The notes under the pieces are model-generated. The model was not told the DNA's origin and did not search any database. It saw nothing but the letters and a program-made list of their open reading frames with translations. The translations under genes were made by a program, and so were the position numbers. Below are positions 34,970-45,521 of a DNA stretch of 64,000 nt, one piece after another (the stretch's first letter is position 1; each line of letters begins with the position of its first letter). Location of the stretch: assembly GCA_963804645.1 (NCBI GenBank), contig CAWDRG010000017.1, positions 736,001 to 800,000 of the forward strand, given 5' to 3'. The stretch is from an uncultured Bacillota bacterium. Lineage in GTDB: Bacteria > Sysuimicrobiota > Sysuimicrobiia > Sysuimicrobiales > Segetimicrobiaceae.

Positions 34970-36268
34970 TTACTGCCGTACCTGGGTGCGCAGCACCTCG
35001 AGCGCCCGTGATAGGTAGGGCGCCGCTTGAGACGGACGCCTGCACTTGAGCAGGAGGTCGCCGAGCGCATTGGATGCGCGGGCGAGGTCCGCGCGCATGT
35101 GAAGGGCTTCAAACGAGCCGATGGCCACCTTGTACCAGCGAATCGCCTCTGAAGTCTGCCCGCTGGCGTCCCGAAGGCCCGCACGAGCCAGCTCTATCCT
35201 GGCGAGCTCGGTCACGTCCCCGAACCGTTTGGCAAGCCGCTCCGCCTCGTCCAGCGCCTCGTCCGCCTGGTTGAATATGCCTTTAAGAGTCAGCGCACGC
35301 CCCAACTCGGTCAACGTGCGGGCGCGTCCGGGATCGTCGCCGATCTGTTCCTTAATCCGAAGGCTCGCCTCAATATGCTCAATCGCGCCGTCCACCTTCC
35401 CCGCGGCGAGCAGCGTGATTCCGATGCTGTTGTGAGCCCATCCGAGGAACCGCGTATCGTTCAGCGCTTCGAAGAGGTGTTGGGCCCTCGTCAGGTGCTC
35501 AAGCGCCGCGTCGAAGTCACCGCGCTCACGCCGGGCGACGCCCAGTTGGACGTGGACGAGTCCCACGCGATGGAGATCCTCTGCGGACTCCAGCAGGGGC
35601 AGGGCTTGTTGATACCAATGGATTGCGTCCGCATAATCCCCGAGCTCCAGATACGTGTTTCCCAGATTGTACAGCAGCGCCCCGCCGAGGCTGCGGTCGG
35701 GATGGTCGCACAACTGGAAGCGGCGATAGCCTTCGGCGAAGTGTTCGCGTGCCTTCGAGAGATCACGTTTGTAATATTCGATCAGCCCGAGAACGTGATG
35801 CACGCGCACGAGGTGGCGTTCGGTCCCCAGGGCTTCCGCGATCTCCCTGCCGAGTTCGACGTTGTGGCGGGCGAGATCGTATTGTCGCAGACCGGCCAGT
35901 GCGTAGGCCAAGCCGACATAACACTCCGCCTGACTGGCCTTATCCTGCTGCCCGATCGCCAAGGTGAGCGCTTCATTGAACGCCTCGGCGGCTCCGGTGT
36001 AATCGCCCGGCTTCGCCTTGGCCCAGGCCGCCGCAACGTTGACCTGCAACACCTTCGCACTCAACGTCGCGTCGTCATCCAAAATGTACGCGGGCGACAC
36101 CTGCAGGCGCCGCGCGATGAGGACCAAGGTCGCAGGTGACGGCCTGGCGCGCCCAGCTTCGAGTAAACTGACGAATCCTTTGGTCAGATCGCTACCGCCG
36201 AGCTCGGTCTGCGTGAGACCGAGCTCTTTCCGTCTTGCCCGAATGCGTTCACCCAGTGAAGACACCAC
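34970..36268 (-). CDS. XRE-HTH + TPR transcriptional regulator (RRNPP-like architecture), paralog 1
   Basis: LGERIRARRKELGLTQTELGG..FVSLLEAGRARPS HTH followed by multiple TPR repeats (LLYNLGNTY, WAHNSIG); GGGGGA RBS. Confidence 0.88.
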   Translation of the reverse strand: MVSSLGERIRARRKELGLTQTELGGSDLTKGFVSLLEAGRARPSPATLVLIARRLQVSPAYILDDDATLSAKVLQVNVAAAWAKAKPGDYTGAAEAFNEALTLAIGQQDKASQAECYVGLAYALAGLRQYDLARHNVELGREIAEALGTERHLVRVHHVLGLIEYYKRDLSKAREHFAEGYRRFQLCDHPDRSLGGALLYNLGNTYLELGDYADAIHWYQQALPLLESAEDLHRVGLVHVQLGVARRERGDFDAALEHLTRAQHLFEALNDTRFLGWAHNSIGITLLAAGKVDGAIEHIEASLRIKEQIGDDPGRARTLTELGRALTLKGIFNQADEALDEAERLAKRFGDVTELARIELARAGLRDASGQTSEAIRWYKVAIGSFEALHMRADLARASNALGDLLLKCRRPSQAAPYLSRALEVLRTQVRQ

Positions 36269-36496: not shown

Positions 36497-37009
36497 CTAA
36501 GCGCCGCCGTTGTCGTCGCCCGCGGGAACCAGCGGCGGCATGCCGTAGACGCTGCTCCCGCCGTTGTCGTCGCCTGCGGGAACCAGCGGCGGCACGCCGT
36601 AGACGCTGCTCCCGCCGTTGTCGTCGCCCGCGGGAACCAGCGGCGGCACGCCGTAGATGCTGCTCCCGCCGTTGTCGTCGCCCGCGGGAACCAGCGGCGG
36701 CACGCCGTAGATGCTGCTCCCGCCGTTGTCGTCGCCCGCAGGAACCAGCGGCGGCACGCCGTAGACGCTGCTCCCGCCGTTGTCGTCGCCCGCAGGAACC
36801 AGCGGCGGCACGCCGTAGACGCTGCTCCCGCCGTTGTCGTCGCCCGCAGGAACCAGCGGCGGCACGCCGTAGACGCTGCTCCCGCCGTTGTCGTCGCCCG
36901 CAGGAACCAACTGTGCGGCGCCCGCCGGAAGACTTGCTGCAAACAGATGAACACCAGACGTGCTGAGAACAAGCGCCCCTACCGCGACAAACATCCATAT
37001 GCGACGCAT
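36497..37009 (-). CDS. Secreted tandem-repeat peptide precursor (signal peptide + 8x LVPAGDDNGG)
   Basis: AGGGGGTG RBS before ATG 37009; MRRIWMFVAVGALVLSTSGVHLFA signal-like N-terminus; 18-aa repeats LVPAGDDNGGSS[V/I]YG[V/M]PP. Confidence 0.82.
   Translation of the reverse strand: MRRIWMFVAVGALVLSTSGVHLFAASLPAGAAQLVPAGDDNGGSSVYGVPPLVPAGDDNGGSSVYGVPPLVPAGDDNGGSSVYGVPPLVPAGDDNGGSSIYGVPPLVPAGDDNGGSSIYGVPPLVPAGDDNGGSSVYGVPPLVPAGDDNGGSSVYGMPPLVPAGDDNGGA
36503..36910. repeat. 54-bp tandem repeat, 7 full units + 30-bp partial unit
   Basis: Unit containing GCCGTAGA[C/T]GCTGCTCCCGCCGTTGTCGTCGCC recurs every 54 bp with no spacers. Confidence 0.97.
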
Positions 37010-37279
37010 AGTACTACACCCCCTATTTTGATTTCTCGAGCACTCGAGTACCAAGCCAGGAAACTTCATGCGAGATCTGATTTCGCGGACTCGAAGCTTT
37101 CACGGACACAAATCTTGATCGCGCCCCACACGAGAAATGGCGTGCTATGGCGCCAAGGTTGCAGTCAATACGTGGCGTACGGTATCGAACAACCGAACGC
37201 CATATGTCCTTATGTACCTATGTACCTCCCTCGCCGAAATTAGACGTCCCCCGTCTAACTAACTGCCCACTGCCCCAGG

Positions 37280-37524
37280 GACTTAGCCGACGCCCGAGGA
37301 GAAGGGCTGCCGTGTGGCTGAAGTTTTATCAACTGCGCCGCACCTTCGCACGTCAACTAATGGAGGTCGGGCCCCCCCATCGCCACCGTACAGCGCCTCT
37401 TTGGCCATGGCAACCTGCAGAGCATCTAGTGGTATCGGTCCCTGCCAGAGCAATCATCCGCCGCAGCTACGATACGGCGGTAACGCGGTTGCTGGGCACG
37501 ACGACCACGGACCCTGACGCGTGA
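37280..37524 (+). pseudogene. Decayed tyrosine recombinase (XerC/D/integrase) C-terminal remnant
   Basis: With a frameshift in the C7 run near 37375 it reads RRRAAVWLKFYQLRRTFARQLMEVG.PIATVQRLFGHGNLQSI*WY...IRRSYDTA, matching box II (HxLRHxFA..LLGH..TxxY). Confidence 0.7.
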
Positions 37525-38064
37525 GCGCAGTCGCCGTACACCGACCCGCGAGGCCAGGCGACGCGCCAAACACCAATCGGGTAAGCGTGCTACGCGTAGC
37601 GCTGGCCGAGGACTGATATTTAGTTGACAAACGTCAAGAATTGGTGCCGTCTGCGCGCCCTGCACAAAAAGAGACTTAGAAACGGTCCGGCTTGGCCAAC
37701 AGCCCCCCATTGCAGAAAGTTGAGTAGAGCGGTAGACTTGTGAAACAGGTAAACTTGTGGGGGGGAGCCCGCAACTCGTCCTGTAACCTCTGCGGCATTA
37801 GTACGGCCACTAGCGACTTGAAGTGACTAAATCATCGGCAAGGGGGGGACACGGAGGGCACTCAAAACTTCATATCGGGCGGGATCCGAGCGGTACCGGG
37901 CTCGGCGGCATTCCAAGCCGCAACGCCTTTCGCGGACGCCGACGTGCAGTCGACGCGGGAGGCCGAAGACGATGGCTGACGTCCATAACCGTAGCACTGC
38001 CCGACTCAGATCTAGCGCGCACAAACCAACGTAGCCGAGGACACGGTCAGCGGCGCTTACACTG

Positions 38065-39438
38065 GTGAACGGCAAGTGCGCATGTGCCAAGCAATCGCGG
38101 ACTGCCGGGATGCGTGTAGTAACATGGCAGGCGACGGCGGCAATAGTGATAGGAAGCTATCAACTACCGCTCGGATTCCCGCTCGCCCATGACCAGATGC
38201 GAGTACATTTTCGTGAGCTTCAGGATTCTTTGCAGGCGTTCTGCGTTGTCCTCTGCGCGTTCGCGCTGGCGGCGTCATTTTTGCCCTGCCTCACAGTCAC
38301 CCGCTGATTGTCATCGGACTGGCGGTTATCTTCGCCGCCACATGCCTCGTTAGACCGATACCGAATCCCTCTGGCGGGAGCATTTTTCCGACCAACAGCG
38401 TGAAAATCGTGGCCGCGCTCCTCTGGATGCCGCAGGACGTACTGATCGGTGTCGCATGTGGGGTCGTTTCTTGGGTTGCTCCTCTTCCAAGGAGCGAGAT
38501 CTGGCGAGCGGCGAGTCAATGGTGCTGGATGGGGACTGGCCTCTGCGTCAGCGGCGCTCACGGCCCACCTCGTGCAGGGCGCGATCGAGCCCAGGCCTGG
38601 TGCAATTGACCGCGGCAGCCGTTGCGGCGGTGGTAACGAATCGCGTCATCAACGAAGGGATTTTCTCGATCTACAGATCCTTGCGATTTGGCTTTCCTAT
38701 TTCTGCCGACTTGGCGCCAAAACGTGCTCGACCAGTGGATGAGTCAGCTTCTTGCCGCGCCGATGGGGATCGTACTGGCGGCAGCGGCCGGTCGACTCGC
38801 AGCCACGTGGTCCTCCCTGGCGCTAACGGCCGTGTCCGCGCTGGCGTTACCTGATTCCACGCCAGGAGCTGGCCTATTACCATCGTGCCCAGGAAGCCGT
38901 GGCCGAAGTCGTCGAGGCGGTCGTCCGCGCACTGGAAGGGATCGATCAGAATACGCGGGCGCACGGTGACCGGGTCAGCCAGCTCGCGGGGGCGGTCGGA
39001 CAGCGTCTGCGGATGCCGGAGGCGGACCTCCGGGCCCTTCGCTTGGCGGCGCGTCTGCACGACGTCGGCTTCCTGGCGGGACCCGACGGGTCGGCGCCCA
39101 ACGACCACCACGCGGTCGCCGGCAGCCGGATCCTCGCCCAGTCGCCGGATCCGCTGATCGCAAGAATCGTACGGGCTCATCACGAACGGTGGGACGGCAC
39201 CGGAGTCCCGGACCGAACCGCCGGGCAGGCGATCCCTCTCGGTGCACGGGTCATCGCAGCAGTGGAAATCTACGATGAGGTCTGCTTCGGGATCGGCGAG
39301 GGCGGCAGCACCATGCCGCCCACCGACGCGCTCGGGCGCGTCCGCGGACTGGCCGGCACCGCGCTCGATCCGCAGGTCGTCAGCGCGCTCATCAGCGTCG
39401 TCGAGGAACAGGAACTCCAGGCCGCGGTGACGCGGTGA
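38065..39438 (+). pseudogene. Membrane-anchored HD-GYP-type protein broken by multiple frameshifts (HD domain intact at 38899-39438)
   Basis: Hydrophobic segments continue across successive frames into IPRQELAYYHRAQEAVAEVVE..HGDRV..LHDVG..HHERWDGTGVP; 5' boundary uncertain. Confidence 0.65.
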
Positions 39439-42041
39439 GCTTGAACGGGGCCGGGATGCGCGCGTCAGCCTCCGCGCTCCCGTTGTTCGTTTGGTTCCTC
39501 GTCGCGGCCGCACTCGGCTCCCTCATCGCGGGGCTGCGCGCGATGGTGGTCGGGCAGATCCCTGAAACACTCGTGATCGCGATTACCATCGCGATCCTCG
39601 ATCTGTATCCGATCTACCTCGATCCCACGGGTGAAATCCCGCTGACCCCCGTCATCACCGTGGGGGCGGTGGTGCTGTTTGGGTGGGCGCCGACGATCGT
39701 CGGCGCCGCTGTCGGCACGCTCTTCGGGCTGTTCAGGCACCCCGCGCGGGAGGTCGTGGTCAACGGCAGCATCCGGCTCGGCGCGCTCATCGCTGCCGCC
39801 GGTCTCGCCAGCGTCGCGCCCGCGATGGGTTCGAACCGCGATGTGAGCGCGGTGATCGCGGTGCTCTATGCCGGCGCCGGGTACTGGGCGGCGTCTGTGT
39901 TCCTGTCCGCGGCCCGCCTGTGTACCGAAGACGCGGTCACGTGGCAGCGTGCCGTCAGATTCCAGCTGGCGGCCACGACGTTCCACCTGGCCGTGTTCAC
40001 CCTCGCGGCCGCCGTCGCGGTGTGGGTGATCAGCAACGATCCGTCGCGGATCGACCTCCTGCTCGTCCCTCCGCTCGCCGCCACGTTGGTGCTCCAGCTC
40101 TACCTGCCTCGAATTCTGCGCGGCGAACAACAGCGCCGCGCGCTCTCCTCGGTGTCGGTGCTCGCGGCCGCGGTCGACGCCAAAGACCCGTATACTGCCA
40201 ACCACTCGGCCGCGGTGGCCGAACTGTCCCGGCGCGTCGCGAGAGTGCTCGACCTCGACGAGCCCGACGTGCACCGCGTCTACCTCACCGGGCTGCTCCA
40301 CGACGTCGGCAAGACCGTCGTGCCGCCGGAGATTCTCCTGAAAACCGGAAAGCTGACGGAGGACGAATGGCAGGTAATGCGCTCGCACGTCGAGGCCGGC
40401 GTTCGGATCGTCCAGTCGATTGGCGGGCTGGCGGAGATCGCCCCATTCGTCGGGGCCAGCCACGAGCGCCTCGACGGGGCCGGCTACCCGGCGGGCCTGG
40501 CCGGCAACGCCATTCCCCTGAGCTCCCGCATCAATCTCGTGGTCGACGCGTACAACGCGCTGACGACGAACCGCCCCTACCGCCCGGCCCGTCCGCCTGA
40601 GGCGGCGCTCCGCGAGCTCGAAGCGCACACGGGAACGCAGTTCGACCCGCGGGTGGTCACGGCGATCCGCACCGCCCTCGGATTGAGCCGGGCGCTTCCT
40701 CCGCAGCGCGACGCGCCGGATCCGCGGGTGGTCGCGACGCTTCGTACCGCGCTCGGGCTCAAGCGCGCCCCCGAAACGCGCGAGGACGCACCAAACGCGT
40801 TGACGTTGTTCCGGCAGCCGGCATTCGCGCTCCTGTGGATCGGGCAACTCGTGAGCTTCCTCGGCGATGAAGTTTTCTTCATCGCCCTATCGCTCTGGGT
40901 CTACCGGCTCACCGGATCCGCGACGATCCTCGCGGTCGCGCTGATCGCCGCGACCGTGGGCCAAGGCCTGCTGGGACTGCTGGCCGGCGCGCTCGCGGAC
41001 CGGATGGACCGTCGCGGAGTCATGATCGCCGCTGACCTCGGGCGGGCGGTCCTCGTGGGCATGCTCCCCTTTGTCATTCTCCGGTCGCTGCCCCTAGGAT
41101 TCCTCGTCCTCGTGGTGTTGAGTGTCGGCACCGTGTTCTTTCGCGCCGCGGTCTACGGGTTGATCCCGTCGATCGTCACGCGAGCGCTCCTCCCGTCTGG
41201 CAATGCGCTGTTGCAGACGACCGAGCGCGTCGCCGAGATCGTCGGCGGGGTGTTGGGGGGGGTGATTGTGCTCACGCTCGGCTACGTCGCGGTGTTCTAT
41301 CTGGACGCCCTGAGCTTTCTCGTGAGCGCGGTGTGCATCGGCCTGATGCCGGTGGCATGGCGGGCGGGTCTCGCCGCGACCGGCCCCAAACACATCGCCA
41401 CGGACATTAAAGAAGGCCTCGACTACATCCGACACACGCCGCTGCACTGGGCGCTGGCACTCTTGATTATCCCAGGGTACCTCACGCTCGCGTTTACCGG
41501 TCTCAGAGCGCCGATGATCATCAAGGCGGCGGCGCTGCCGGCGGTCGCCTACGGCGTCGTCAACAGTGTGATCGGGGTCGGCAAGCTTGTGTCCGCGCTG
41601 TCGCTGGCCGCGATCCCGCGCGGCTGGAGCAACGTGTCGTTCGTGGTCGGATCGTTCCTCCTGACGGCGCTCGGGATCCTGCTGTTCGGCGCCACCACGT
41701 CGTACTCGGTGCTCCTCATGGGGGCGTTCCTGTTCGGCGCCGGAAATATCGCCTCGAACATCGCCAACGCGTCCATTTCCCTGTCCAACACGCCGTCCGG
41801 GATCGTGGGCCGACTGATGTCCAGCCGACAGGTCTTCATCGCCGGCACCACGCTGGTCGGCATGTTGATCTTCGGCAGGCTGGCCGACGTCGCCGGCCCG
41901 CCGTTCGCGCTCGTGATGCTGGGAGCCGTCTCGGCCGGGGGCGTGCTGATCGTGTGGTTCACCATCGGCCGCCGGGTCGCTCCGCCAACCTCTCAGGACG
42001 TGCCTCGCAGCGTCACCGTGCCGTCCCAGCGCAACGCATAG
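39435..42041 (+). CDS. Fusion: N-terminal multi-TM domain + HD-GYP phosphodiesterase + MFS transporter
   Basis: DAKDPYTANHS..LLHDVGK..HERLDGAGYP..GTQFDP; then FALLWIGQLVSFLGD..AGALADRMDRRGVMIAADLGR (MFS motif A) and further TM helices. Confidence 0.88.
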   Translation: MSLNGAGMRASASALPLFVWFLVAAALGSLIAGLRAMVVGQIPETLVIAITIAILDLYPIYLDPTGEIPLTPVITVGAVVLFGWAPTIVGAAVGTLFGLFRHPAREVVVNGSIRLGALIAAAGLASVAPAMGSNRDVSAVIAVLYAGAGYWAASVFLSAARLCTEDAVTWQRAVRFQLAATTFHLAVFTLAAAVAVWVISNDPSRIDLLLVPPLAATLVLQLYLPRILRGEQQRRALSSVSVLAAAVDAKDPYTANHSAAVAELSRRVARVLDLDEPDVHRVYLTGLLHDVGKTVVPPEILLKTGKLTEDEWQVMRSHVEAGVRIVQSIGGLAEIAPFVGASHERLDGAGYPAGLAGNAIPLSSRINLVVDAYNALTTNRPYRPARPPEAALRELEAHTGTQFDPRVVTAIRTALGLSRALPPQRDAPDPRVVATLRTALGLKRAPETREDAPNALTLFRQPAFALLWIGQLVSFLGDEVFFIALSLWVYRLTGSATILAVALIAATVGQGLLGLLAGALADRMDRRGVMIAADLGRAVLVGMLPFVILRSLPLGFLVLVVLSVGTVFFRAAVYGLIPSIVTRALLPSGNALLQTTERVAEIVGGVLGGVIVLTLGYVAVFYLDALSFLVSAVCIGLMPVAWRAGLAATGPKHIATDIKEGLDYIRHTPLHWALALLIIPGYLTLAFTGLRAPMIIKAAALPAVAYGVVNSVIGVGKLVSALSLAAIPRGWSNVSFVVGSFLLTALGILLFGATTSYSVLLMGAFLFGAGNIASNIANASISLSNTPSGIVGRLMSSRQVFIAGTTLVGMLIFGRLADVAGPPFALVMLGAVSAGGVLIVWFTIGRRVAPPTSQDVPRSVTVPSQRNA

Positions 42042-42237
42042 GGCCGCCGGGCGCGGAGTCGGCCGGCCCTGGCGTACGCGCCGCCTGCCTCAGAGGTCTA
42101 GAACCCCACCCCCCAGTGTACACACGGGATGGCCGGCACCAGCGCGCGCCGGCTCAGTTTAGGCACGTCGGAGCAGTGCACGGACCTGCCGGACGCCATA
42201 CGCAGCAGCCGCCACACCAGGATGGGGGAGACGTCAC

Positions 42238-43998
42238 ATGAGATCCGATCGAACGCTCGCCTGCATGCTCGTCGTCCTGCTCATTGTCCTCGTCGCGGGC
42301 GCCGCGGCCAGCGGGGCCGGAGCGCCCGTGAACAATCCGGGCACGTTCGTCACCGAGCGCCTGGCGGATCCGCAGAGCCTCGATCCCGCCTACGCGTACG
42401 ATACCGCGAGCGAAGAGATCATCTACCCCAACGTCTACGAGACCCTGATCGGGTACGACGGCAGCGTCCTGTCCCACTATGTGCCGGTGCTGGCTGCCCA
42501 AGTGCCGAGCGTGGGCAATCACCTGATCACGCCGGACGGGCTCACGTACACGTTCCCGATCCGCGCCGGGGTGCGGTTTCACGACGGGTCCGTGATGACT
42601 CCCGAGGACGTGCGCTATTCGATCTTGCGCTTCATGCTGCAGGACCGCGACGGCGGCCCGTCGTGGCTGCTGCTCACGCCCCTGCTCGGGACCGAGAGCA
42701 CGCGCGACGCCAAGGGCAACATCGCCGTGACGTACGCGCAGGCCGCCAAGGCCGTAACGGTCGAGGGGCACAACGTGGTCTTCCACCTCGCCCATCCGTA
42801 CGGCGCGTTTCTGAGCATCATGGCGGCGTGGTCGTTTGTCCTCCCGCGCGCGTGGGCCGCGGCGCACGGTGACTGGGACGGCAGCCCGGCGACGTGGCAG
42901 CGCTACAACAACCCGAAGCTCCAGGACCGCTACGCGTTCGACCATATGAACGGCACCGGGCCGTTCCTGCTGCAGCAGTGGGACCGGCAGGCCAAGCAGA
43001 TCATTCTGGTCCGGAACCCGCAGTACTGGCGCGCGCCGGCCCGGTTGTCGCAGGTCGTGATCCGCACCGTCCCCGAGTTTGGGACGCGCCGCCTCGAGCT
43101 CCAGCGCGGCGACGCCGACCTCATCGACGTCCTGCGCCCGGATCAGCCCCAGGTGGCGGGACTGGACGGCGTGACGATCCGTGACGGCCTTCCGCAGCTG
43201 GCGCTGCTGGCCCTCGACTTCAACCTGCAGATCGACCCCACCGCCAATCCCGATATCGGCAGCGGGAAGCTTGATGGGAACGGGATCCCGCCGGACTTCT
43301 TCAGCGACGTCCACGTCCGCCAGGCGTTCGCGTACGCGTTCGACTACGGGACGTTCATCCGGGACGGATACCGGGGGGACGCGGTCCAGCCGAACGGCCC
43401 CATCATCCAGGGCCTGCTCGGATACGATGCGTCGATGCCGCGGTACACGTTCGACCGGCAGAAGGCGATCGCGGAGTTCAAGGAGGCGTGGGGCGGGAAG
43501 CTGTGGGACGTAGGGTTCCGCTTCACCGAAACGTACAACACCGGCAATGTGATCCGTCAGGTCGCCGCGCAGATCCTCAAGGACGAGGTCGAGTCGCTCA
43601 ACCCGAAGTTCCGGATCGACATCCGCGATCTCGCTTGGTCGTCGTTCCTCCAGATGGTCGGCCAGCATCGGGGCACGCTGTACGGCATGGCCTGGACGGT
43701 CGACTATCCCGATCCCGACGACTTCGCACAGCCGTTCATGGCGAGCAACGGTTCCTACCCGAAGCGGGACGGCTTCAGCGATCCCGCCGCGGACCAGCTG
43801 GTCGCGGAGGCGGCGGCCATGTCCGATCCCGCCAAGCGCGCGGCGATCTACCAGCAGCTGTCCAAGCTCTCGTACACCGACGCGCCCAGCATCTACATCG
43901 CGCAGCCGACCGGGTTCGCGGTGATGCGGACGTGGGTCCGCGGATGGTACTACAACCCGGTGATCGTGCAGGACTACGGCCCGCTGTTCAAGCAGTAG
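42238..43998 (+). CDS. ABC transporter substrate-binding protein, family 5 (peptide-binding)
   Basis: Signal peptide; SLDPAYAYDTAS, YTFPIRAGVRFHDG, NGTGPF, WTVDYPDPDDF. Confidence 0.92.
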   Translation: MRSDRTLACMLVVLLIVLVAGAAASGAGAPVNNPGTFVTERLADPQSLDPAYAYDTASEEIIYPNVYETLIGYDGSVLSHYVPVLAAQVPSVGNHLITPDGLTYTFPIRAGVRFHDGSVMTPEDVRYSILRFMLQDRDGGPSWLLLTPLLGTESTRDAKGNIAVTYAQAAKAVTVEGHNVVFHLAHPYGAFLSIMAAWSFVLPRAWAAAHGDWDGSPATWQRYNNPKLQDRYAFDHMNGTGPFLLQQWDRQAKQIILVRNPQYWRAPARLSQVVIRTVPEFGTRRLELQRGDADLIDVLRPDQPQVAGLDGVTIRDGLPQLALLALDFNLQIDPTANPDIGSGKLDGNGIPPDFFSDVHVRQAFAYAFDYGTFIRDGYRGDAVQPNGPIIQGLLGYDASMPRYTFDRQKAIAEFKEAWGGKLWDVGFRFTETYNTGNVIRQVAAQILKDEVESLNPKFRIDIRDLAWSSFLQMVGQHRGTLYGMAWTVDYPDPDDFAQPFMASNGSYPKRDGFSDPAADQLVAEAAAMSDPAKRAAIYQQLSKLSYTDAPSIYIAQPTGFAVMRTWVRGWYYNPVIVQDYGPLFKQ

Positions 43999-44055: not shown

Positions 44056-45351
44056 CTAGCGGGGCGAGTCGGCGCGCAGCACCTCAAGCGCCCGCGAGAG
44101 ATACGGCGCGGCCTGCGACGCGCGGCCGTGTTTCAGGAGTAGATCGCCGAGCGCGTTGCACGCGTTCGCGACGTCCGCCTGCATCCCAAGCGCGGTGAAT
44201 CCGTCGATCGCCTGCTTGTAGCAGCGAATCGCCTCCGGCATCCGGCCGGTCGCCGCCCGGAGCTGGGCGCGGGCGGCCTGAATGCGGGCGCCCTCGGTGA
44301 CATCCTTGAACCGGTCGGTCAGCCGCTCGGCCTCGTCAAGCAGCGCATCCGCCGAGGCGAACTCGCCTTTTGCGATCATGGCGCGTCCCAATTCTGTGAG
44401 CGACCGTGCCCGCCCGGGGTCGTCGCCGGTCTCCGCCTTGATCCGGAGACTCGCCTCGATGTGCGCGATCGCGTCGTCGACCTTCCCCTCAGCCAAGAGC
44501 GTGATCCCGATGCTGTTGTGGGCCCATCCGAGCAGCCGCCGGTCTTCGAGCACCTCGAACACGTGCTCCGCCCGGTTCAGATGCGCCAGCGCCGCGTCGT
44601 AGTGCCCTCGCTCGCGCTCGGCCACTCCGAGCTGGACGTGCACCAGACCGAGCCGGTGCATGTCCCCGGTCGACTCCAGCAGGGCCATCGCCCGCTCGTA
44701 CCAGCGGGCGGCCTCCACGTGGTCGCCCATCTCCATGTGCGTGTTGCCGATGTTGTACAGTAGAATGCCGCCGAACCCGCGATCCGGGTGATCGAACTCT
44801 TCGAACCGGCGGTACGCCTCGGCAAAATGCCCGCGCGCCTCAAGCAGGCGGCGCTCCTGGTACGCGATCATGCCGAGCACGTGGTGGATGCGCACGAGGT
44901 GATGCGAGGCCCCGGCCGTCTCGGCAAGGTCCCGCCCGCGCTCCACGTTCCGACGGGCCAAGTCATGCTGCCGGAGACCCGCGAGCGCCGTCGCGAGCCC
45001 GATGCAGCATTCGGCCTCGAGGGCTGGATCGTCGTCCCCCGCGGCCAGCGCGAGCGCCTCGTTGAACGCCTCGGCGGCGCCGGTATAATCGCCCTGCTTG
45101 ACCTTGACCCAGCCCGCGGCCACGGTGACGCGAACCGCTTTGGCCCCGAGGGTCGTGCCTCGCTCCAGAAAATAGCCGACGGGCCTCTGCAGGCGGCCGG
45201 CGAGCACGCCCAGGGTGTCCAGCGACGGCTTCGCGCGGCCTTTTTCGATCAGGCTGATGAACGCTTTGCTGACGTCAGCGCCGCCGAGTTGGGTCTGAGT
45301 CAGGCCCAACTCCTTCCGTCGGGTCCGAATGCGTTCCCCCAAGGAAGACAA
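44056..45351 (-). CDS. XRE-HTH + TPR transcriptional regulator (RRNPP-like architecture), paralog 2
   Basis: Colinear with and clearly similar to 34970..36268 (SSLGERIR.RRKELGLTQ, GWAHNSIGITLLA, GDDPGRAR.LTELGRA, QAAPYLSRALEVLR); TTG start at 45351 with GGGGGA RBS. Confidence 0.88.
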   Translation of the reverse strand: MSSLGERIRTRRKELGLTQTQLGGADVSKAFISLIEKGRAKPSLDTLGVLAGRLQRPVGYFLERGTTLGAKAVRVTVAAGWVKVKQGDYTGAAEAFNEALALAAGDDDPALEAECCIGLATALAGLRQHDLARRNVERGRDLAETAGASHHLVRIHHVLGMIAYQERRLLEARGHFAEAYRRFEEFDHPDRGFGGILLYNIGNTHMEMGDHVEAARWYERAMALLESTGDMHRLGLVHVQLGVAERERGHYDAALAHLNRAEHVFEVLEDRRLLGWAHNSIGITLLAEGKVDDAIAHIEASLRIKAETGDDPGRARSLTELGRAMIAKGEFASADALLDEAERLTDRFKDVTEGARIQAARAQLRAATGRMPEAIRCYKQAIDGFTALGMQADVANACNALGDLLLKHGRASQAAPYLSRALEVLRADSPR

Positions 45352-45521
45352 CGTCGATCCCCCGGTCTCGCGTCGGTGCGCGCCCATCCACTACCGCGAA
45401 GCGCTCGGTACGGCTGGTATCTGATACTGGATCCCGGGTCTCGAACCCTTGTGCATTCGCAGCACCCGGCCAGCCCGGGGGCCGGCCGGCAGTCGGATCG
45501 GGATCGGGGCGGCGAGGCCGG

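Follow-up and report, generated by a model that had tools for sequence, protein, structure and literature searches.

The window analysed here is a 64,000-nucleotide (nt) stretch from an uncultured bacterium of the Sysuimicrobiota (assembly GCA_963804645.1, contig CAWDRG010000017.1, positions 736,001 to 800,000 of the forward strand). On its plus strand, at 39435..42041, lies a gene that encodes 868 amino acids (aa) from a GTG codon in a single open frame with zero internal stops. Pfam matches and an AlphaFold2 model show a membrane domain of eight helices, followed by an HD-GYP domain and by a 12-helix transporter of the major facilitator superfamily (MFS). An initial annotation, made from the letters alone, had described an uninterrupted 868-aa open reading frame (ORF) with these three parts, and the ORF call, Pfam and the model all bear this out; the motifs it quoted are present as LHDVGK (residues 288–293), SHERLDGAGYP (342–352) and the motif A stretch GALADRMDRR (518–527). 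An alternative ATG start at 39456, seven codons inside the GTG frame, would give 861 aa, which fits the length of a 98% identical database protein (P0002, 861 aa). The GTG and the stop of the upstream ORF overlap by 4 nt (GTGA). The model, built on 78 homologues, has a mean per-residue confidence (pLDDT) of 88.2 and a predicted template-modelling score (pTM) of 0.61, and its Foldseek matches are MdfA, with a TM-score to target of 0.78, and three HD-GYP structures, 9rbz, 4mcw and 4r8z.

Integrity and domains of the fusion protein

A word-indexed search of 5.8 billion proteins returned 467 matches among 8000 scored candidates. PF13487 and PF07690 are both listed for 82 of the 83 best matches (P0002–P0084, 44–98% identity), and the sole exception to this pairing of HD_5 with MFS is a 580-aa record, P0082. 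Conservation counts given below refer to an alignment of 78 fusion proteins, in which mean identity to the window protein is 69% for the HD-GYP domain, 61% for the MFS domain and 40% for the N-terminal domain. We also compared positions 38100–42100 with contigs from four public peat-metagenome runs (X1, X2, X3 and X5), which may include the sample from which the window was assembled. Zero insertions or deletions were seen in 39435–42041 among these contigs, and a 1659-nt contig from run X3 (40258–41916) crosses the junction with 8 substitutions and 0 gaps. The chimeric joints and loose ends seen among the contigs each depend on a single contig of low depth. Of the sequence words sampled, a metatranscriptome run contained a fraction of 0.05.

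A long frame of this kind might arise by mis-assembly, or through an error that deleted the stop between two genes, and the gene directly upstream in the same assembly does carry six 1-nt indels that are absent from the public contigs. Against this stand the occurrence of both domains in one protein in 82 of the 83 best matches, which come from many independent assemblies, and the gap-free contig across the junction, from which we conclude that the fusion is not an assembly artefact; the single open frame also spans both halves in 16 genomes of the family to which the window belongs (f1), the window's included. We therefore regard an artefact as a very improbable source of the frame, and for the family as a whole this explanation is already refuted. 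The integrity of the junction, which the initial annotation had singled out for checking in reads, is thus upheld both by the public contig and by the two-domain homologues.

The N-terminal membrane domain (residues 1–235; 39435..40139, plus strand) is assigned as divergent MASE9-like from the AlphaFold2 model and from profile–profile comparison with hhalign. Its helices in the model span residues 14–36, 39–55, 72–82, 84–100, 104–131, 135–165, 170–199 and 205–250, and the last of these continues into the HD-GYP domain. Helices 72–82 and 84–100 of the structure model are short, which would fit the published MASE9 layout of eight predicted segments, two of which are too short and are assigned to an intramembrane hairpin (Galperin and Chou, bioRxiv 10.1101/2021.11.05.467447). 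No Pfam family matches residues 1–240 of the window protein. Among 14 N-termini of this type (B-type, after the unfused gene B described below; the window's is included), none matched MASE9 (PF20972), nor any other Pfam family, at E values up to 1. The N-termini of the upstream paralogue, A, match MASE9 at all nine unfused loci (E < 1e-3, seven of them above the 24.3-bit cut-off), and hhalign aligns the B-type N-termini with these MASE9-positive A-type N-termini at a probability of 95.7% (E 9.6e-9, 167 columns). MASE9 clusters were also the top matches of an ESM Atlas feature search (scores 0.92, 0.91 and 0.90), which we treat as a lead only. Judged by profile–profile comparison, the B-type N-terminus is homologous to MASE9-positive domains yet falls below the Pfam cut-off for MASE9.

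The HD-GYP domain occupies residues 236–415 (40140..40679, plus strand) and matches Pfam HD_5 (PF13487) over residues 242–407 (E 4.6e-37; 127.8 bits against a cut-off of 27.2; profile positions 2–170 of 170). The closest solved sequence relatives of residues 235–422 are V-cGAP3 (5z7c, 3.5e-44) and PmGH (4mcw, 1.9e-30). PmGH has eight metal ligands, E185, H189, H221, D222, H250, H276, H277 and D305; alanine variants are inactive at every ligand except E185 and D305, so that H276A abolishes activity, and K225A and D183A are inactive too (Bellini et al., PMC4159591). With equivalence read from the 4mcw alignment and that published ligand list, residues H257, H289, D290, H318, H343 and D371 of the window protein (PmGH H189, H221, D222, H250, H277 and D305) and K293 (K225) are invariant in 78 of 78 fusion proteins, and so are E344, G348, G350, Y351 and P352. 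At the position of PmGH E185 there is a tyrosine in 69 of the 78, as in V-cGAP3 and the 'Y/F' subfamily.

One ligand departs from this pattern. The first histidine of the HHE motif is Ser342 in the window protein (SHERLDGAGYP), and at this position, which corresponds to PmGH H276, the 78 fusion proteins have serine in 74 cases, threonine in three, asparagine in one and histidine in none. The window protein accordingly lacks the full HHExh(D/N)GxGYP motif that serves as the criterion of the Galperin and Chou census, with the GYP part invariant. The initial annotation recognised neither this change nor the nature of the upstream 179-aa ORF, a remnant of the paralogue described below. HHE is kept in all nine unfused B orthologues examined and is canonical in five distant fusions as well, which indicates that replacement of the first histidine is specific to the fused lineage and fixed within it. 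The fused lineage has replaced one metal-ligand histidine and kept every other catalytic and GYP residue, and across the family all three parts of the protein retain their conserved residues.

The C-terminal part is a complete 12-helix MFS domain of efflux type, similar to the DHA3, EntS and Mef transporters (residues 456–843; 40800..41963, plus strand), as assigned by Pfam, NCBIfam and the model. It matches MFS_3 over residues 456–840 (E 2.2e-21, 76.4 bits against a cut-off of 27) and MFS_1 (E 1.9e-20, 73.5 bits against a cut-off of 33.4). The AlphaFold2 model places 12 long helices in residues 462–843, as two groups of six that flank residues 637–668 with their short helix, 654–667. The motif A residues D522, R523, D525, R526 and R527 are invariant, as are the charged in-helix residues D534, R537 and D818, and R570, R598, E601 and D624 are conserved in at least 90% of the proteins. 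The top NCBIfam match is TIGR00900 (H+ antiporter, DHA3; 4.8e-50), and its 170.9 bits lie under the cut-off of 319.6; EntS (NF007792; 6.4e-16) reaches 58.4 bits against a cut-off of 324, and the Mef pumps come next, also under their cut-offs. Because these scores are far under the curated cut-offs, a transport substrate cannot be transferred from the TIGR00900, EntS or Mef families.

The two domains are joined by a short linker. The spacing between the invariant residues D404 and L467 has a median of 37 residues and is 36–37 residues in 50 of the 78 proteins, compared with 62 residues in the window protein and P0002. Pairwise alignment shows that these two proteins, and only these among the 78, contain a diverged tandem duplication of 2 x 75 nt (40644..40793, plus strand; residues 404–428 and 429–453), which Tandem Repeats Finder did not report. 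The duplicated unit of 25 residues comprises the last HD-GYP helix and the linker, and its copies are identical at 48 of 75 nt. A public contig covers the duplication free of gaps. In the model, residues 420–424 and 443–451 of the linker are of low confidence, with pLDDT below 50.

Origin, recurrence and surroundings of the fusion

We traced the fusion through a phylum set of 94 genomes, in which the window's genome (G000) belongs to family f1; two unpublished records (G017 and G025) entered only the tally of 71 genomes from other families. Single-frame fusions are limited to family f1, where they occur in seven of seven genomes of genus g1, six of six of g2, the one genome of g4, and G076 and G077 of g6. 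G075, also of g6, has the fusion in pieces, and G072 holds a contig-end fragment only. The window query found no fusion in G064, G073, G074, G078 or G079, and no single-frame match across both halves is listed in the 71 genomes of other families. One of the database proteins, P0071, is 60% identical to the window protein and carries the name Bacillati bacterium ANGP1 / Candidatus Segetimicrobium, with the lineage Candidatus Sysuimicrobiota.

In other families the same components are encoded by separate neighbouring genes. All nine unfused loci that we fetched have the gene order MFS, A, B, with ORFs (called from the first start) of about 500 aa, 425–479 aa and 403–468 aa, respectively, and Pfam confirms the MFS, A and B domains in the five loci that were scanned. 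In four of these five, B is followed by a BTAD-AAA_16-TPR regulator of about 1200 aa. B is the counterpart of the N-terminal half of the window protein, to which it is 43–52% identical over the HD-GYP domain. In a maximum-likelihood tree of 26 MFS sequences (midpoint root; four duplicate loci of represented genomes left out), the fused and the cluster-linked MFS group together in a clade (support 100/99) that excludes three further MFS paralogues from the window genome; within this clade the fused MFS are monophyletic (100/99) on a long branch. Gene order and tree together indicate that the fusion is derived from two genes that are separate neighbours elsewhere in the phylum, and they are most simply read as a single event at the base of family f1, in which B was joined to the cluster-linked MFS.

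Three further features were seen around these loci. G059 has a stand-alone MFS (L029, 12850..14103), 53% identical to the window MFS and about 6.5 kb from the fusion, which nests inside the fused MFS clade. In genus g2 (G060; L030, 8115..11633) the fusion is followed by a 1173-aa protein of PAS-GAF-SpoIIE-HATPase_c_2-STAS architecture, which takes the place of the BTAD-AAA-TPR regulator of the unfused loci. A gene for NamZ (exo-beta-N-acetylmuramidase) lies divergently beside the cluster-linked MFS in four of the five scanned unfused loci (L021–L024), an adjacency suggestive of some connection between the ancestral cluster and the recycling of the cell wall. For the fused form we dropped cell-wall recycling as a pointer to the substrate, as NamZ is on other contigs in the window genome.

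To look beyond the phylum, we used an exhaustive phmmer search of 1.84 billion cluster representatives (50%-identity clusters). Among the best 150 matches listed, P0132, P0149, P0184 and P0204 are full-length at 28–33% identity, and all four have HD_5 followed by MFS_3 or MFS_1, the architecture also of P0086; P0149 is named as a Candidatus Dormibacteria metagenome-assembled genome (MAG). A scan of one genome per species, with the HD-GYP motif as sole pattern, gave at least 80 loci. Among the 80 matches listed, three are full-length and 77 cover the N-terminal and HD-GYP part only, so that counts of fusions outside the phylum are lower bounds, and one of the three full-length matches listed is a Chloroflexi MAG with an 855-aa fusion. 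The other two, both Chloroflexia MAGs (L037, 5878..9348; L038, 5863..9333), have the components side by side, with a gene for a membrane HD-GYP protein of 474–478 aa separated by 3 nt from an MFS-containing gene of 676–680 aa. In L038, Pfam assigns DUF5317 and MFS_3 to the downstream gene, and AAA and BTAD genes lie upstream. With DUF5317, a membrane domain of unknown function, joined to MFS_3, L038 shows this gene partnership fused in a second way.

Immediately upstream of the fusion in the window is paralogue A (38277..39438, plus strand), a MASE9 protein with a degenerate HD-GYP domain, which we located by tblastn with the intact A of G065 and which is broken in this assembly. Its sole open part is an HD-GYP remnant of 179 aa (38899..39438, plus strand; Pfam HD_5, 2.3e-20), and its membrane part is scattered over three frames from about 38277. 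Compared with the A of G070, there are six 1-nt indels, at 38458, 38491, 38517, 38586, 38699 and 38854. The public contigs are un-shifted at these six places, in three of the four runs at most of them, in X3 alone at 38586 and in X1 and X3 at 38699. G+C content is 0.58–0.60 around 37000–38700 and about 0.70 nearby. The membrane part of A (38277..38900) may be a young pseudogene in the strain, or the assembly may be locally poor. Aligned with B, A has no equivalents of D183, K225 (where it has M, L or F), R314 and K317 and has a glutamate at D305, but it keeps HD, and in the unfused loci also HHE..GYP. The HD-GYP domain of A is predicted to be non-catalytic because residues required in the PmGH mutagenesis have been lost. 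A and B share 4 nt at their ends in five of the nine unfused loci, and likewise in the three fused loci with A called; the ORFs called in the remaining four unfused loci either have a longer overlap or sit 3 nt apart.

Downstream of the fusion is a gene for an SBP_bac_5 binding protein of OppA/DppA type (42238..43998, plus strand), and two paralogous HTH_3-TPR regulators are encoded on the minus strand at 34970..36268 and 44056..45387 (all by Pfam). A 2-oxoacid:ferredoxin oxidoreductase gene lies near the fusion here and in three other f1 loci. At 36497..37069 on the minus strand, just upstream of one of the HTH_3-TPR regulators, is a gene for a repeat protein of 190 aa, in which a signal-like hydrophobic N-terminus precedes 7.5 near-perfect 54-nt repeats of the unit LVPAGDDNGGSSVYGVPP (98% matches in Tandem Repeats Finder). 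Together with the HTH_3-TPR regulators and SBP_bac_5, it makes up a gene set that resembles an RRNPP-type peptide signalling system whose propeptide is multi-copy. The repeat protein occurs in all six other genomes of the window genus, and outside that genus our only find was a weak match in g5. Genera g2, g3, g4 and g6, most genomes of which carry the fusion, yielded no match. Its gene adjoins the fusion in G000 and its closest relative, G070, only; in G065–G068 the best match and the fusion sit on separate contigs. The initial annotation had suggested that this neighbouring peptide might take part in the function of the fusion, a link for which we find no support, given that adjacency is confined to G000 and G070 and that the peptide was not found in g2, g3, g4 and g6.

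How the halves may be coupled

We propose that the fusion is a single inner-membrane protein, in which a cytoplasmic HD-GYP domain would be held between a MASE9-like sensor on its N-terminal side and a proton-coupled, efflux-type MFS on its C-terminal side. The HD-GYP domain would sense a dinucleotide and act as a switch, in the manner of a 'trigger' or receptor. Its occupancy, together with signals from the MASE9-like domain, would pass through the short tether to helix 1 of the MFS and there gate the export of a small molecule. The degenerate A, encoded immediately upstream, probably pairs with the fusion as a regulatory subunit. The ligand is most likely cyclic di-GMP (c-di-GMP). The window genome has seven GGDEF and eight HD_5 matches, and no match to the EAL domain at a completeness of 96.8%; this complement makes c-di-GMP the likeliest ligand, and HD-GYP proteins appear to be the sole class of c-di-GMP phosphodiesterase in this genome. 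Short connections tether the HD-GYP domain to the membrane on either side, and allosteric coupling to the transporter is therefore the most likely arrangement. Change of the histidine to serine would slow or abolish hydrolysis, as suits a sensor. A precedent is DvhD of Desulfovibrio vulgaris (9rbz), a membrane protein whose HD-GYP domain is a non-hydrolysing receptor for c-di-GMP and governs a membrane-associated output (PMC13090378), and which is both a fold and a sequence match of the window domain.

An HD-GYP switch that gates an exporter is the reading we tentatively put forward, and we favour it because of the fixed change at a ligand that is essential in PmGH and because of the DvhD precedent. 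Several observations weigh against it. Serine may still hold a metal or a water ligand, in which case phosphodiesterase activity could be fully retained. In DvhD neither HD nor the double histidine survives (SQ and MN stand in their places), whereas the window protein keeps HD and the second histidine, so that loss of activity is much less certain than in DvhD. The distant fusions (in Dormibacteria, Chloroflexi and unnamed records) retain a canonical HHE, and a receptor role therefore cannot hold for the architecture as a whole. V-cGAP3, the best solved relative of the domain, is specific for 3'3'-cyclic GMP–AMP (cGAMP), which leaves c-di-GMP not assured as the ligand. The MFS part scores under the curated cut-off of every named NCBIfam transporter family, and a sequence search of the PDB with it gave zero matches; and the presumed partner, A, is broken in the window assembly. 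The wider proposal, in which the His-to-Ser change has moved the fused domain from enzyme towards receptor, c-di-GMP or another cyclic dinucleotide directly gates an MFS exporter, and membrane HD-GYP, MFS_3 and BTAD/AAA form a conserved and so far undescribed module for signalling and export in Sysuimicrobiota-like bacteria and Chloroflexota, with the fusion also in Dormibacteria, strikes us as somewhat unlikely in that full form.

Information might flow in the opposite direction, and we consider this nearly as likely as the switch. The HD-GYP domain would then be an active phosphodiesterase under the control of the MASE9-like domain and of the MFS, which would act as a 'transceptor' or report on its transport cycle, and substrate flux or membrane state would set the local level of cyclic dinucleotide; at about one chance in three, this is a serious contender. 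HD-GYP is normally the output domain behind membrane sensors, as described in the main text of the Galperin and Chou preprint. K293 and the GYP motif are invariant, as is every metal ligand except one; the active site is canonical throughout in the unfused B orthologues and in the distant fusions; and with no EAL found in the genome, HD-GYP proteins are the only class of c-di-GMP phosphodiesterase found there. Set against these points is the serine fixed in the fused lineage at the position of H276, where alanine inactivates PmGH, and the retention by the MFS of motif A and of charged helix residues, as expected of a working transporter, although a sensing role would still be compatible with them. 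We hold it distinctly unlikely that the two halves are merely co-localised, such that a phosphodiesterase at the exporter shapes a local messenger pool, or the MFS exports the dinucleotide or its breakdown product, in the absence of allostery. MFS pumps of Listeria have been reported to export c-di-AMP, which lends this some plausibility, and gene neighbourhood and fusion attest to a shared function and not to a mechanism. But none of our results bears on dinucleotide export, and a tether that is short and conserved in length, on a domain anchored in the membrane at both ends, suggests a fixed geometry. The coupling between transport and a second messenger that the initial annotation had proposed gains weight from the comparison of genomes: the halves are conserved neighbours in the unfused relatives, and two further phyla have them fused or side by side as well. 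Which way the coupling runs, and what is transported, are matters of inference.

Relation to known systems and significance

The three domain families and the combination of MASE9 with HD-GYP are known, and the fusion is a conserved, uncharacterised architecture. V-cGAP3 of Vibrio cholerae (5z7c) and PmGH of Persephonella marina (4mcw), both active phosphodiesterases, share the fold of the window HD-GYP domain. The tyrosine at the position of PmGH E185 is common to the window protein, V-cGAP3 and the 'Y/F' subfamily; missing from that subfamily is the carboxylate by which two of the three irons of PmGH are bridged (PMC4159591). V-cGAP3 combines a weakly matching, HD-GYP-like N-terminal region with a catalytic one and in this respect recalls the A and B gene pair. 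The solved chains of V-cGAP3 and PmGH have no MFS part, whereas the window domain has a membrane anchor on either side and carries serine at the position of H276. MASE9-HD-GYP proteins listed in the main text of the Galperin and Chou census, such as T. maritima TM1467 and S. venezuelae HdgA, appear to share their N-terminal layout with the window protein, eight helices with two short ones among them and then HD-GYP; unlike them, B-type N-termini miss the Pfam MASE9 model (0 of 14). In the main text of that census, the terms MFS, major facilitator, transporter and permease have zero occurrences. DvhD, by the description of it in PMC13090378, has a periplasmic protease as its output, in place of which the window protein has a fused transporter.

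On the transporter side, the best NCBIfam matches of residues 456–843 are exporters of DHA3, EntS and Mef type (TIGR00900; EntS; Mef(A)/(C); Tet(V); Tap). These carry no signalling domain, whereas the window MFS is fused to one; the top fold match of the window MFS is MdfA, a drug/H+ antiporter. The logic of both leading readings has parallels. BcsA-PilZ is a c-di-GMP-gated export machine with a fused receptor domain, and in SSS-histidine kinases such as CbrA a transporter-like sensor is fused to a signalling enzyme; their domain families are different, with neither HD-GYP nor MFS. Known direct targets of c-di-GMP include PilZ domains, degenerate GGDEF and EAL domains, transcription factors and secretion ATPases. 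Our literature searches, judged partly by title and abstract, found no paper on an HD-GYP-MFS fusion or on an MFS wired to a cyclic-dinucleotide domain, in line with the statement of the initial annotation that no characterised fusion of this kind was known. Public records of the fusion bear automatic names, for example 'MFS transporter' or 'HD-GYP domain-containing protein.../MFS family permease'.

If the switch reading is true, this would be the first nucleotide second messenger that directly gates a major-facilitator transporter. The fusion and its ancestral neighbourhood provide a concrete hypothesis, in which a second messenger would be physically coupled to a secondary transporter, and the His-to-Ser variant that occurs naturally allows enzyme and sensor to be compared within one system. 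The fusion adds a membrane-protein architecture to the HD-GYP census, and it opens a way into the signalling of an uncultivated phylum that is common in soil and peat.

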